Of a DNA stretch of 64,000 nt, positions 34,010-56,662 are shown in pieces (position 1 is the first letter of the stretch; each line of letters begins with the position of its first letter). Both the position numbers and the translations under genes were made by a program. The notes beneath the pieces were generated by a model. That model saw only the letters and a list, made by a program, of their open reading frames with translations. It did no database searches and had not been told where the DNA came from. The DNA lies in assembly GCA_947480335.1 (NCBI GenBank), contig CANKCB010000006.1, positions 13,148 to 77,147 on the forward strand, written 5' to 3'. The stretch comes from Gammaproteobacteria bacterium (GTDB lineage: Bacteria; Pseudomonadota; Gammaproteobacteria; Eutrophobiales; Eutrophobiaceae).

Positions 34010-34285
34010 ACACAGCCTCGTTGCAGCACAACAAATTGCTTAGGCTGTCGAATAGATAAAGCTGGATAGAGGCGTACTGTTTTAATTCACCCCGATTCGT
34101 CGTATGCTGCTATCAACTCAGTGATTTCAGGACTATCGAATGGTTAACCTGGACTACCCCAAACTTCCCTACACCGCCTTTGCACGGTTATCCAGTTATT
34201 TGTTAGATATCCGTGCATCTCATGCACACTATATAAGAAAAATAACTTGCATCATCCCTGTCACGTTAATACATAGTTATGCCTC

Positions 34286-34777
34286 ATGAGAATCACCCTT
34301 GATCACAACTGCATCATCCATATTGAGAATGGCACAGACGTTGGAAATGCTGTTCAGGTCATCGTTTCGAGTGTGAATAATGAATGTTTCGTTGTGAACA
34401 TTGGTGCTTCTGAAATGCGCAAATATGGCGTACGGCCTGACAAGTACGAAAAATTCGAAGAGCTCTTGAGCCAAACTGGTCTCGCACATTTGCCAAGACT
34501 CAATCCAATGATGATTTTTGATGTTACCTTTTGGGATCGGTGTGTTTGGGGAGGCGACGACACTATAAAACTCGCGAGCAATATCGAAGAGGTATTATTT
34601 GGTGAGTCAGAAAAGATCGATATTGCTTCAGTTGGTCTTGATTCAGCCGAGGGTAGAAAATGGTTAAATAGGATCTGCGATATCCACGGCATGTGGTGCC
34701 ACATTAAAATAAAAATGATATTTTCCTCACCACAGATGGTAATTTCAGCAAAGAGACTAAGTTACCAAAACTTTTAG
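34286..34777 (+). CDS. Hypothetical protein (possible PIN-like N-terminus ITLDHNCII); islet gene
   Basis: 163 aa, no confident family. Weak resemblance to VapC N-terminal hh-D-x-N motif and downstream acidic residues. Low GC. Confidence 0.4.
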   Translation: MRITLDHNCIIHIENGTDVGNAVQVIVSSVNNECFVVNIGASEMRKYGVRPDKYEKFEELLSQTGLAHLPRLNPMMIFDVTFWDRCVWGGDDTIKLASNIEEVLFGESEKIDIASVGLDSAEGRKWLNRICDIHGMWCHIKIKMIFSSPQMVISAKRLSYQNF

Positions 34778-34895
34778 CATTGGTGTCTCGCCGCATCTGT
34801 CATCCACAGGAGCTTTTACATGAGGCATAACAAGGCACCCAAATCGGACGGCTTCGCCGCCGCTTGGCTTGGTCGTTAGCAAAAATCAAAAACCT

Positions 34896-35321
34896 ATGAA
34901 TATTCAATATAGAAATACATTTGAAGAAGTTGATTGGAATCAAGTATCTAAAATATTTGAGGTAAATGGATGGGGCGCAAGACCTCCTGAGAAAGTTAAG
35001 GCTGCATTTCAAAAAAGTTCTTTCATGCGCTTTGCGTATATTGAAGGCCAACTGGTTGGTATGGGCAGAACTATTGATGACGGCGTCTACTATGCTTGGG
35101 TGGTCGATCTAGCTATATTGCCAGAGTTTCAAGGCCTTGGTATTGGCTCTACTATTCTTAAAGAACTCGAAAAAGATCTAGAGCCTTTTATAAGTACAAT
35201 GTTAACGGCAGCACCTGGCAAAAGTGGGTTTTATGAGAAACTTGGCTGGATTAAACAATCTGCTGCATACATCTGGCCGCGTTCAGAAAAGCAAAAACGT
35301 GAATTTACTGACAATTGCTAA
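34896..35321 (+). CDS. GNAT-family N-acetyltransferase
   Basis: Acetyl-CoA binding motif ...VVDLAILPEFQGLGIGSTILKELE.... Start taken at MNIQYRN. Confidence 0.7.
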   Translation: MNIQYRNTFEEVDWNQVSKIFEVNGWGARPPEKVKAAFQKSSFMRFAYIEGQLVGMGRTIDDGVYYAWVVDLAILPEFQGLGIGSTILKELEKDLEPFISTMLTAAPGKSGFYEKLGWIKQSAAYIWPRSEKQKREFTDNC

Positions 35322-35446
35322 TAAGTCGTTGCAGCATCGTTCCGCTTCGATGCACTGGATAGTTTGTAAGTCGCAATATTATGATTTTGCTGCGCAATAT
35401 AATTCTATAAAACCACAGCTTTAATACTACCGCTAAACTCGGCGTT

Positions 35447-35803
35447 ATGGAGAAACAAATGGCCAAAGAACGAGCTGACTTCAAGAATACTATTGCGGCA
35501 GGAGAAAAAGTCTTTGGTCAGGATCTCTGGAGAGATTCTAAATTCTTTGGCGTGAAAACATTGATTGGGCATACGCAATCTTGGCCGTGTCAGCTTCTTC
35601 TGTGGTGGTTGTTTATCTGCTGGGGTTACGTTATGTACGACGTGGTAATAAAAAATATCGGTTGGTTATACGGATTGATAATTCTCGCTCCAATTCATTT
35701 TCTAATTTTCAAATTACCAGTAGTACATATTATAGAACCACTATCCGAAAGTGAATTGCAGGAATATCTAGGCAAGACTAGTGCCCCCGAAAATAAGGAA
35801 TAA
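35447..35803 (+). CDS. Hypothetical small membrane protein (2 TM)
   Basis: 118 aa with two hydrophobic helices (LLLWWLFICWGYVMY, IGWLYGLIILAPIHFLIF). No known family recognised. Confidence 0.35.
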   Translation: MEKQMAKERADFKNTIAAGEKVFGQDLWRDSKFFGVKTLIGHTQSWPCQLLLWWLFICWGYVMYDVVIKNIGWLYGLIILAPIHFLIFKLPVVHIIEPLSESELQEYLGKTSAPENKE

Positions 35804-35917
35804 GAATTTAAGTATGTCACTCAAGGAATTACAAGGAATTAGGGTCAGAGTAACAATTAGAAACAATAACGAGTCAAAGCCCTTTTTGAAATTGCACTAG
35901 TTAAGGGATCGAAGATA

Positions 35918-36367
35918 ATGTCTGAACCCGCCAGGCCCATAAGCAAATCGACCCTGACTGCGTGGGTAAATGAAAAGATCCGAAACGGAACGCCTCGGTG
36001 TGTCTTGTATCACATACTAATTTCAATGCAATCCGAAACCAACGACCTGAAAGAGATGCAAATATTAGCGGCCGTTGCTGATGAACAAGAAGAAATAATG
36101 GTTGATAGGAATACGAAAGGAATGGCGCTCGAAAAGCAAGGAAAGGAAGATAGCGCGATCGTTCTCTACGAAGCCAATGTCGCAGATCAATTCGATGGAA
36201 GCCATCCATACAATCGATTGCGCATACTTTACATGGATCGCGGGAGCTACATCGACACCATCCGGGTGTGTGAGGCATACATTGCAAATTCCAGTCAGGA
36301 TCAGAAGTTGTGTGAATCGTTCCGTACCGAGATTACGAAACTTACGGCAAAGGCTTCCGGTTCTTGA
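35918..36367 (+). CDS. Hypothetical protein, predicted alpha-helical/TPR-like
   Basis: 149 aa. Central region GMALEKQGKEDSAIVLYEANVADQFDGSHPYNRLRILYMDRGSYIDTIRVCEAYI has a TPR-like periodicity. No known family. Confidence 0.4.
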   Translation: MSEPARPISKSTLTAWVNEKIRNGTPRCVLYHILISMQSETNDLKEMQILAAVADEQEEIMVDRNTKGMALEKQGKEDSAIVLYEANVADQFDGSHPYNRLRILYMDRGSYIDTIRVCEAYIANSSQDQKLCESFRTEITKLTAKASGS

Positions 36368-36472
36368 CCACGACGCGACATTTCCCCCTTACTCATCATT
36401 CCCGGAACTGCGCGAAAAGCCGCGCAGGCCGTTGAATTCAGACTTTATGCTGCCTGCAAACCATCAGCGCCA

Positions 36473-37330
36473 ATGATCGAACAGAGATCGAAATATAGAA
36501 GTACCATCACTATGTCCGAGCTTGGACGGCGGGCTAGTGAAATTCGTGAGCTTTATGAGGGGGAAGGCATACGGCTTCACTCGCAGTCTGGCATGGCCGA
36601 GCTTATTAATGGCGCCATGGAGTTGGCGTCTAATAGTGGGCCTCATGGAACGGAGGGTAACATCTATCTTGGGCTGCATTTAGACAGAGTATATAAAGCT
36701 GTGGTTCCCTTAAAACAGCATCCGAATAGAAGTGAGTATCTAAAAAAACTTCGTGCTGGCAATCTTCGGTTCCTGAACAGAACTCCGTCAAAAGCCAGAG
36801 ATTGTCTTTTTGAACTGGAGATATGGCGATCTATAAACGATCTAAGAAAGAATGCCGGGAGCCTTTCCGAGCCTGACGTAGTTCTTGACCTTCCTTCCCT
36901 GAAAATCGGAATTGCTTGTAAAAAAATTTATTCAACCCATAATGTTGAAAAGACACTTTCAAATGCCGTTAAGCAAATCAGATCGAATTGCCAAGGCTTT
37001 GGCGTTGTCGCCTTCAGTATTGAAGATATCTTTCCAGAAGGGAAAGCTGTTGGGGCAAAGACCTTTGACGGTGCGTCAGATTTCCTTTCACGTCAATGTC
37101 AAAATTTCTTGGCAGAACATGAGAAATTGTTCATCAAGTATTTCAAGGGAAGCGATATCGTCGGAGCCTTAGCTGTCGCATCAAGCATTGTTGAAACTAC
37201 TCAAGAGCGTCTGCGCTATTCAAATATGCAGCAGTGGTTCCTATGGTCCGCCCCTGAGCTCAACAAAAATGCTCAGATATCTGTGATTCACTTTAGAAAC
37301 CTACTTGGAAAAAATGCGTCCGAAAAATAA
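36473..37330 (+). CDS. Hypothetical protein (285 aa) with possible PD-(D/E)xK-like motifs; candidate effector of an uncharacterised module
   Basis: No recognisable family. Motif order E (FELEIW), PD (EPDVVLDL) and xK (GIACKK) is weakly reminiscent of a restriction-endonuclease fold. Alternative start MSELG at 36512. Confidence 0.4.
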   Translation: MIEQRSKYRSTITMSELGRRASEIRELYEGEGIRLHSQSGMAELINGAMELASNSGPHGTEGNIYLGLHLDRVYKAVVPLKQHPNRSEYLKKLRAGNLRFLNRTPSKARDCLFELEIWRSINDLRKNAGSLSEPDVVLDLPSLKIGIACKKIYSTHNVEKTLSNAVKQIRSNCQGFGVVAFSIEDIFPEGKAVGAKTFDGASDFLSRQCQNFLAEHEKLFIKYFKGSDIVGALAVASSIVETTQERLRYSNMQQWFLWSAPELNKNAQISVIHFRNLLGKNASEK

Positions 37331-37388
37331 ATAACGGGTCAAATCCCTTTTGAAATTGTATCTGGCCGCCACAGATGAGCCACGATCA

Positions 37389-37691
37389 TTATGGGTTTAT
37401 CAATTTTGAATCAACATCCATGCTTTTATGAAGAATGCGCACAATTTCAATGTCGCCGTCATTTATTCTTCTATAGAAAACAAGATGACTGCCTTGGGGA
37501 ATTTTTCTGTAACCCTCTCTAATGTAATCACACACCTTTCCTGTTAAGGGTTCGTCTGCCAGTCGGCGAAAAGCCTCATCCATCTGTTTAATGTATAAAT
37601 TGCGTTGCTCTTTCCCCCAACGATTTTCCGTGTAGCTGGCAATGCTTTTTAAATCCGCTTTCGCTTTAACCGTTAAAACAAATGACCTCAT
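37389..37691 (-). CDS. parE: Type II toxin ParE (RelE/ParE superfamily)
   Basis: 100 aa. FVLTVKAKADLKSIASYTENRWGKEQRNLYIKQMDEAF...IREGYRKIPQGSHLVFYR...IVRILHKSMDV is a canonical ParE. Confidence 0.85.
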   Translation of the reverse strand: MRSFVLTVKAKADLKSIASYTENRWGKEQRNLYIKQMDEAFRRLADEPLTGKVCDYIREGYRKIPQGSHLVFYRRINDGDIEIVRILHKSMDVDSKLINP

Positions 37692-37927
37692 TTACCGGTT
37701 TCGTCCAGCTCACGAATAAACGTTTCGTAGCTGTAGTCAGCCCGACCACTGCGCTCGCCTTCTTCCAGCAGTTGGCGTAAGGCGTTCAGCTTGTTTTCCG
37801 AATCCTCGAGCAATCTCAACCCCGCTCGCATCACTTCACTCGCAGAGCCGTACCGACCGCTGTTGATTTGCTCATTAATGAAGCCTTCAAAATGGTCACC
37901 CAGAGTGATACTCGTATTTTTAGCCAT
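37688..37927 (-). CDS. parD: Type II antitoxin ParD (RHH/CopG-like)
   Basis: 79 aa. MAKNTSITLGDHFEGFINEQINSGRYGSASEVMRAGLRLLE is a canonical ParD. 4-nt overlap with parE. Confidence 0.85.
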   Translation of the reverse strand: MAKNTSITLGDHFEGFINEQINSGRYGSASEVMRAGLRLLEDSENKLNALRQLLEEGERSGRADYSYETFIRELDETGK

Positions 37928-56443: not shown

Positions 56444-56662
56444 TCAGAGATATTTGTATTGGGCAATCAGGGCACGTCCCTTGCGGGTAACATAACCTTC
56501 AGTATCGATAAAACCGCGCAACTTTGCTTCGGAATATAACGTACCCGATTTGTTATGCTTGGGCAAATACACCAGACCATCACCATAACGGTATTGCAGT
56601 ATCATGGCGATTTGCGATTCCGGTGCTTCCGGCTCTAACGAACTTTGTAATAATGCTGACAT
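56444..56662 (-). CDS. Hypothetical small protein
   Basis: 72-aa ORF with a plausible promoter-distal position. No family recognised. Confidence 0.3.
   Translation of the reverse strand: MSALLQSSLEPEAPESQIAMILQYRYGDGLVYLPKHNKSGTLYSEAKLRGFIDTEGYVTRKGRALIAQYKYL

Follow-up and report, generated by a model that had tools for sequence, protein, structure and literature searches.

The window analyzed here is a 64-kb stretch of a gammaproteobacterial contig in which two neighboring genes, encoding proteins of 149 and 285 residues, lie within a 4.1-kb island of low GC content. Across ~34.0-38.2 kb the GC fraction falls from ~0.52 to 0.40-0.45, with marC on one side of the island and a lipoprotein/folA/thyA/lgt block on the other. 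The island holds five co-oriented small genes followed by an inverted parDE pair. In order, the five are a 163-aa open reading frame (ORF), a GNAT acetyltransferase gene, a gene for a small, probably membrane protein, the gene for the 149-aa protein, which may be tetratricopeptide repeat (TPR)-like, and the 285-aa gene, and each is followed by an attC recombination site or by the remnant of one (Table 1). An earlier note on this DNA had read the last two of these genes as a sensor or scaffold plus effector module. Our analysis indicates that they are quite probably independent cassettes in a decayed, integrase-less integron array, that is, a cluster of attC sites lacking integron-integrases (CALIN), and that they are neighbors by accident.

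Both ORFs are present on the plus strand where the earlier note had placed them, co-oriented and separated by a 105-bp spacer. In the public assembly gene calls the larger gene starts at an internal ATG at 36512, which gives a protein of 272 aa; residue numbers given below are those of this form. The 13-residue N-terminal extension of the 285-aa form is kept in the homologues P0004, P0005, and P0006, two of which lack the internal Met, and hence the 285-aa start is plausible. Loci carrying homologues of the two proteins are labeled L001-L030 and onward, L001-L006 being other samples' copies of the window sequence.

Table 1 Features of the low-GC island and predicted secondary structure of the C-terminal domain of the 285-aa protein. 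Nucleotide positions are those of the window; residue positions are those of the 272-aa form.
Feature	Position	Strand	Cassette start; own R''; match	Basis and remarks
Cassette A, 163-aa ORF at 34286-34777	34276..34875	+	GTTATGCCTCATG, 34276-34288; CATGAGGCATAAC, 34819-34831; 13/13	Starts G/TTATGCC; R'' complementarity
attC of cassette A	34825..34881	+		GCATAAC ... GGTCGTTAGCA; best R1 match in window
Cassette B gene, GNAT acetyltransferase, 141 aa as called	34896..35321	+	GTTAGCA; TGCTAAT; 6/7	ORF from 34869; Pfam Acetyltransf_10/7/1, E ~1e-10 to 1e-11
attC of cassette B	35316..35450	+		TGCTAAT ... GGCGTTATGG; second-best R1 match in window
Cassette C gene, small hydrophobic protein, probably membrane	35447..35803	+	GTTATGG; CAATAAC; 6/7	118-aa ORF, 114 aa called; ORF list, gene call
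Short attC-like site after cassette C	35864..35906	+		CAATAAC-GAG-TCAAAG...TTTGA...GTTAAGG; R' = start of 149-aa cassette
149-aa ORF (cassette D gene)	35918-36367	+	GTTAAGG; TCTTGAC; 5/7	ORF list
Degenerate attC remnant of 149-aa cassette	36362..36450	+		Hairpin, GTTGAAT (36431-36437), decayed core TTTATGC (36444-36450)
285-aa ORF (cassette E gene)	36473-37330	+	TTTATGC (ancestral GTTATGC); AAATAAC; 4/7 (5/7 with ancestral)	ORF list; 272 aa from ATG at 36512
Probable 5' half of 285-aa cassette attC	37329..37362	+		R''-like AAATAAC, then direct-repeat copy 2 (AATAACGGGTCAAATCCCTTTTGAAATTG)
parE toxin gene	37389..37691	-		Pfam ParE_toxin, E 1.4e-22
parD antitoxin gene	37688..37927	-		Pfam ParD_antitoxin, E 2.2e-35
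Predicted helix (285-aa protein)	residues 94-111			E101
Predicted strand	residues 116-119
Predicted strand	residues 122-126			D122 at its start
Predicted strand	residues 131-138			C-K-K at its end
Predicted helix	residues 142-159			Q155
Predicted strand	residues 163-169

The boundary between the two genes emerged from comparison with the three 285-aa homologues closest outside the organism of the window, those at L015/16 (77% identity), L007/8 (69%), and L017/18 (68%). Upstream similarity of all three to the window begins precisely at G/TTATGCGGCC (also given as G/TTATGCGGCCTAGCGACC), and before this GTTATGC boundary each homologue has its own unrelated GC-rich palindrome. At the other end, each of the three genes terminates in ...CGCATAACAA, with GCATAAC, which is the exact reverse complement of GTTATGC and hence the signature of a circularizable cassette. 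The boundary in the window has lost the essential G of this core. These sequence comparisons place a recombination boundary between cassettes in the spacer that separates the 149-aa gene from the 285-aa gene.

In all five units the cassette start is complementary, to varying degrees, to the R'' box of the attC that belongs to it. The perfect 13-nt inverted repeat of cassette A is the clearest mark of a cassette anywhere in the window and implies a recombination site ending at 34275; no integrase or attI was recognized upstream of that position.

The whole 64 kb was searched on both strands, with filters off, using R1, an attC covariance model built here from 14 aligned attC sites of the array at L009 only (it is not IntegronFinder's model). 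In the alignment the R''/R' helix is invariant and the compensatory changes in L''/L' exceed those of shuffled and slid controls. RNAalifold returned no consensus structure for the alignment, and thus the attC structure was set by hand and verified by pair counts. The best R1 match in the window falls in the spacer after the 163-aa gene (23.4 bits, E 0.003) and the second best in the spacer after the GNAT gene (13.3 bits, E 0.87). These two top matches, both intergenic and both in the island, put at least two attC sites close together on one strand. A third match (56534-56558, minus strand, 12.7 bits, E 1.2) is the palindrome GCATAACAAA-7 nt-CGTTATAT, which is probably due to chance, as it is far from the island and made of two boxes only.

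R1 matches also accompany the 285-aa family elsewhere. One lies directly after the 77% homologue of L015/L016 (E 0.018), a weak one lies just upstream of the 68% homologue, and others adjoin genes of the family in several other taxa (GTDB loci). P0005, a homologue of 52% identity, belongs to a long array whose small, co-oriented genes encode GNATs, BrnT, HigBA, GFA, and helix-turn-helix proteins, and nearly all of these genes have an attC behind them, consisting of yTAACAAG, a GC-rich imperfect palindrome, and GGCGTTAgg. The gene for this homologue is itself flanked by two strong R1 attC matches, of 51.8 and 29.1 bits. At L030, from the Pseudomonadales metagenome-assembled genome HK-STAS-PROT-146, the array of the 52% homologue is preceded by a divergent truncated intI (Phage_int_SAM_4, E 1.8e-27). 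The L030 locus is a genuine integron, in which the 285-aa homologue is a single-gene cassette. Note that this intI (L030:1-1191, minus strand) is truncated after ~130 residues; the adjoining sequence looks, by eye, like the N-terminal PHP domain of a DnaE2-type polymerase.

No integrase was present in the gene list within ~10 kb on either side of the island, and the integrase-sized ORFs (290-372 aa) elsewhere in the window contained other Pfam domains in place of an integrase domain; a short intI fragment could have escaped notice. A cassette array without an integrase in the window makes the locus a CALIN, a recognized class as defined by IntegronFinder (10.1101/2024.07.02.601686). Like other CALINs and sedentary chromosomal integron arrays, the locus is a run of short co-oriented single-gene units followed by attC-type imperfect palindromes bounded by RYYYAAC and GTTRRRY boxes, with cassette starts complementary to R'' of their own attC and no integrase found nearby. 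The cassettes are of typical size (~450-950 bp), and the cargo (a GNAT, ORFs of unknown function, and a toxin-antitoxin (TA) system) is also of the usual kind. Unlike them, the array is small (five cassettes and parDE), has at least three degenerate attC sites, and carries a G-to-T mutation in one core.

We consider it improbable that the island is instead an ordinary horizontally acquired islet with no link to integrons, its palindromes and AAC/GTT boxes being products of chance or REP-like (repetitive extragenic palindromic) sequences. The window yielded no integrase and only one clearly significant attC match, and the island did not stand out in an energy-based scan that folded every AAC...GTT pair 35-140 nt apart under the constraint that the two boxes pair. 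GC-rich core-genome regions topped the ranking of that scan, which was dropped as uninformative. Against the islet explanation, the two best R1 matches among the 128 kb of strand searched are both in island spacers and on the coding strand, the R'/R'' complementarity of cassette A is complete, and the cargo is typical of cassettes. Moreover, in a genuine integron and in other arrays attC sites flank the 285-aa gene, whose boundary sequence is kept in the window.

The integron reading also accounts for the intergenic hairpin. The spacer does contain, at 36408-36427, the GC-rich hairpin CTGCGCG-AAAAGC-CGCGCAG that the earlier note had pointed out, and the pairing continues outward as ATTC.CGG..stem..CCG..GAAT (36398-36437). 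Its folding energy as single-stranded DNA is -14 kcal/mol (z = -2.0), which is modestly above chance given that 6 of 200 shuffles folded as well. An intrinsic terminator was considered and rejected, as a terminator scan called no terminator-like site there, and Rfam gave no match for the hairpin and nothing meaningful on the island. The hairpin lies downstream of the 149-aa stop codon and ahead of the point at which the 285-aa cassette begins, in the place expected for the attC of the 149-aa cassette. Similar GC-rich stems occupy the center of the L009 attCs, e.g., GCTGCGG-TTTCACC-GCCGCAGC, and the GTTGAAT that follows the hairpin fits GTTRRRY. The hairpin is probably the attC remnant of the 149-aa cassette, which explains it as what is left of a recombination site.

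A 33-nt direct repeat with one indel, AATAACGrGTCAAAkCCCTTTT(T)GAAATTG, brackets exactly the pair, with copies at 35865-35897 and 37330-37361, and is unique to these two places within the window. Both copies open with ATAAC, which is R''-like, and with a mini-stem of TCAAA/TTTGA. Copy 1 ends at the GTTAAGG core, and the TAAC-GAG-TCAAAGC of its site is similar to the 5' half of TAACAAGTCAAAGC, an L009 attC. Copy 2 has no following GTT core; in the homologues GCATAAC stands at that position, and the attC of the 285-aa gene in the window is unlike the attC conserved in homologues L015 and L018. The two repeats may be related attC 5' halves. The repeat was also tried as a widespread element in a metagenome scan with TAACRRGTCAAAKCCCTTTT, and this was rejected because all 16 matches lay, by eye, apparently inside unrelated coding sequence.

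We propose that site-specific recombination at G/TT cores piled the cassettes one behind another, so that the neighborhood of the 149-aa and 285-aa genes would be an accident of cassette stacking. The core that opens the 285-aa cassette would then have changed from GTTATGC to TTTATGC and, with the core mutated and no integrase found in the window, the array is probably frozen.

Several observations weigh against this reading. With R1, which was derived from a single array, none of the sites flanking the pair (35864-35906, 36362-36450, and that beginning at 37329) was matched at E<=10. These sites have recognizable boxes and small stems and fit the attC plan in part, and with the exception of the central hairpin they fold no better than shuffles. 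The hairpin site has no matching AAC box and went unscored by R1. The R'' matches of cassettes D and E are, taken alone, within chance. The contexts of the 149-aa homologues contained no R1 match, and some of them are not cassette-like (mixed orientation in L024, housekeeping neighbors in L026 and L027). Hence, the main grounds for regarding the 149-aa gene as a cassette are its place in the array and the GTTAAG/GTTAGC cores found upstream in homologues.

A further alternative concedes that the two cassettes arrived separately but holds that, after decay of the attC between them, they became a lineage-specific neo-operon, co-transcribed and functionally linked in this organism only. The mutated core and the degenerate attC remnant between the genes, as well as the similar 33-nt attC-like halves on either side of the pair, would suit such a history, and the same arrangement was found in ~24 contigs from different samples. 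However, these contigs all carry the same sequence and therefore provide no independent evolutionary signal. As there is also no evidence of co-adaptation of the pair, and as functionally unrelated neighbors are routine in cassette arrays (the P0005 array is an example; see also 10.1101/2024.07.02.601686), we give the neo-operon no better prospects than the ordinary islet.

If the two genes formed a module as the earlier note proposed, they would be expected to travel together, and in other genomes they did not. When both proteins and all 31 members of the 149-aa family were compared by tblastn with every fetched locus, the two genes were found together only in L001-L006, which carry identical sequence and represent the window's own organism. 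The 149-aa gene was lacking from the five other distinct contexts of close 285-aa homologues and from 53 genome loci of the wider 285-aa family (58 loci from other organisms in total, about 57 of them distinct). Conversely, the six loci of 149-aa homologues (about four distinct contexts) had no 285-aa gene, although the contig of one ends ~150 bp downstream. Clustering of the ORFs within 3 kb of the family members at the 58 loci gave no neighbor family common to more than three loci. The upstream neighbors of the close 285-aa homologues are a 4HBT gene plus a 64-aa ORF, an IS91 transposase gene, reverse-strand small ORFs, or another cassette, and downstream of the 149-aa homologues lies a 187-aa ORF, a 59-aa ORF, or a gene on the reverse strand. 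At L028 a 79-aa gene beside the 149-aa homologue was tested as parD or parE, either of which would imply insertion of the 285-aa gene, and it was neither.

A two-gene abortive-infection module beside parDE, with the 149-aa TPR-like protein as sensor or scaffold and the 285-aa nuclease as effector, is therefore the least probable explanation and a very unlikely one: the co-orientation and 105-bp spacing with no terminator-like site called between the genes, the motif order conserved in the 285-aa family, the direct repeat that brackets exactly these genes, and the decayed core that now leaves them mobile or lost only together all speak for it, but the two families co-occur in none of the five close and 53 distant 285-aa contexts nor in the six 149-aa loci, a cassette boundary common to three homologues separates the genes, the window proteins have no PADLOC match, and the 149-aa family has no match to a PDC partner model. 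That two genes are neighbors in an integron array is no evidence that they form a functional module, and a tempting misreading is thereby corrected.

The earlier note had also placed the pair directly upstream of parDE. The identity of parDE is confirmed, with parD first and parE second in a 4-nt overlap as in type II ParDE systems, but the two genes are on the opposite strand, tail to tail with the pair. Being on the minus strand and convergent with the 285-aa gene, parDE does not have the pair transcriptionally upstream of it. Just upstream of parD lies a promoter-like site (37987-37958, minus strand, TTGACA-18-AATATT, 10 of 12 matches), the best sigma-70-like site in the island. This site fits a self-transcribed TA cassette; the five plus-strand genes have no comparably good one.

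The suggested connection with TA and defense cargo stands, although for a reason other than the one a module would supply, such cargo being typical of integron cassettes. These cassettes are enriched in TA systems and in small, mostly single-gene defense systems, several of which are nucleases, and TA cassettes have been shown to stabilize arrays (10.1101/2024.07.02.601686). The inverted parDE closes the array here and would most likely stabilize it by addiction. Like array-stabilizing parDE cassettes it has canonical ParE and ParD domains, the 4-nt overlap, a promoter-like site of its own, and an inverted position at the array end, whereas no clear attC was found flanking it.

As to the other cassettes, neither the 163-aa ORF of cassette A nor the small hydrophobic protein of cassette C had a match in Pfam, NCBIfam, or PADLOC. 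The product of the GNAT gene is called at 98 aa in the metagenome copies L003, L004, and L005 and at 141 aa in L001, L002, and L006, which points to a frameshift in this cassette or to variation between strains.

The 149-aa protein has 31 homologous clusters. The family shares the N-terminus MSEPARP and a C-terminal block, RN..G..LEK.G....AI.LYEAN..D.FDGSHPY.RLRILY......Y..AIRVCEAY. Its earlier description as TPR-like is weakly supported, through its relatives, 19 of 27 of which match TPR_7 at E<=0.1 (best 2.1e-6) and which are called TPR proteins in the JGI annotation, but the window protein itself has no Pfam match at E<=1. Its NCBIfam match to MamA (E 0.02) is far below the cut-off, and no relative of the family was found in PADLOC. 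This is probably a small helical protein, unrelated to the 285-aa protein, with one or two TPR-like repeats in its C-terminal half. Downstream of two 149-aa homologues (L027:4500-4560 and L028:5720-5760) lies a palindromic GCGTAGGATGGGTnGAGCGnAGCGA...CCCATC, which has the look of a REP-type sequence and not of an attC.

The 285-aa protein belongs to a sizeable family. A direct search gave seven related clusters, a profile search 308 matches in a word-indexed database, and an exhaustive library 1039 cluster representatives at E<=1e-3, of which 351 were at E<=1e-10. Members are mostly ~305 aa in length and come from many phyla and from conjugative megaplasmids; no homologue was found in phages, and a PHROGs search gave nothing meaningful. 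That the protein belongs to no known family, as the earlier note had it, is borne out by the lack of any Pfam, PADLOC, or NCBIfam match above noise. Pfam searches with 108 members likewise gave nothing meaningful (three unrelated single-member matches, E 0.0025-0.009), and a profile search of the PDB found no sequence relative of the family.

The FELEIW, EPDVV, and GIACKK motifs singled out earlier are present and contain residues invariant across the 108 members, among them E101, W105, P121, D122, C136, K137, K138, Y140, S150, and Q155. An AlphaFold2 model built from the 108 sequences (predicted local distance difference test score, pLDDT, 92.9; predicted template modeling score, pTM, 0.91) has a helical N-terminal domain (residues 1-81) and a C-terminal domain whose secondary-structure order predicts an alpha-beta-beta-beta-alpha-beta core. 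The order of elements in this predicted core follows that of the PD-(D/E)xK nucleases, with the Glu on helix 1, Pro-Asp opening strand 2, Lys ending strand 3, and Gln on helix 2. The nuclease-like character suggested for the protein is partly supported: the E..PD..xK order is invariant and falls on a confidently predicted core, but the acid of (D/E)xK is missing and Foldseek gave no significant match.

These last points count against a nuclease. The strict D...(D/E)xK motif is absent, since Ala135 or Cys136, never Asp or Glu, stands two residues before the Lys. Foldseek searches of PDB and BFVD with the full-length model and with the isolated C-terminal domain gave no significant match, the isolated domain being no more decisive than the full-length protein. 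The top matches were to the central domain of acetyl-CoA carboxylase (template modeling score, TM, 0.33-0.37), and known PD-(D/E)xK proteins (EcoRV, HincII, the bunyavirus endonuclease, Can1, UL24, and Vsr) appeared only at E 0.02-1. The PD-(D/E)xK superfamily includes variants with a relocated acid, and thus failure of the strict motif does not by itself rule out a nuclease mechanism. The departures from the superfamily are IACKK, in which Ala or Cys replaces the acid, the lack of a significant sequence or Foldseek match to a solved member, and the N-terminal helical domain, to which no affinity could be assigned.

Our best guess, at even chances or a little less, is that the 285-aa protein would be a stand-alone PD-(D/E)xK-like nuclease. 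It would act alone, most likely as a metal-dependent nuclease comparable to single-gene phage-defense or abortive-infection cassettes, the invariant E101, D122, K137/K138, and Q155 being placed as in PD-(D/E)xK proteins, with Cys136 or Ala135 at the position of the second acid. Stand-alone and cassette-borne, it would resemble the single-gene defense nucleases, e.g., of Mrr_cat and DUF4365 type, described in Vibrio integrons (10.1101/2024.07.02.601686).

A serious competitor, which we rate a little lower, is that the family is not a nuclease and has some other Cys-Lys-Lys/Glu chemistry, is a non-catalytic binder, or is a plasmid-borne anti-defense or maintenance factor. The model has no significant structural neighbor, Ala or the invariant Cys136 stands in for the second catalytic acid, distant members lie among small hypothetical genes on conjugative megaplasmids, and no phage homologue was found. 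Set against this are the order of the secondary-structure elements and the positions of E, PD, K, and Q, which match the PD-(D/E)xK core, the many PD-(D/E)xK proteins among the weak Foldseek matches, and local matches to the PADLOC defense candidate PDC-M15A (PDLC04456).

Matches to PDC-M15A were given by 48 of the 108 members at E<=0.1 (best 4.5e-6) and span the E..PD..CKK core, at profile positions 35-104 of 260. They are local and weak (14-21 bits in ten members examined individually), and the window protein itself gave none in PADLOC at E<=1. Moreover, PDC-M15 is a multi-gene candidate that has not been validated, whereas the 285-aa family has no conserved neighbor. Neither of the two window proteins is a PDC-M15 member by PADLOC at E<=1, and the 149-aa family has no PDC match.

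The stronger proposition, that the family is a new stand-alone anti-phage or anti-plasmid nuclease with an atypical E/PD/C-K-K/Q site and a fold without a close solved relative, we consider unlikely. The locus is a small, partly fossilized example of the known cassette-array picture, and its discovery potential lies only in the 285-aa family, which is unannotated and combines a confident model and a catalytic-looking motif with carriage on mobile single-gene cassettes. The 285-aa gene is thus a cheap single-gene candidate for the defense screens now run on integron cassettes. Distant relatives of 24-30% identity are also carried by large conjugative plasmids, the Pseudomonas putida plasmid p716811-VIM (L099, 35714-36559) and the Burkholderia sp. 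YI23 plasmid byi_2p (L100), in both cases within runs of small co-oriented hypothetical genes.

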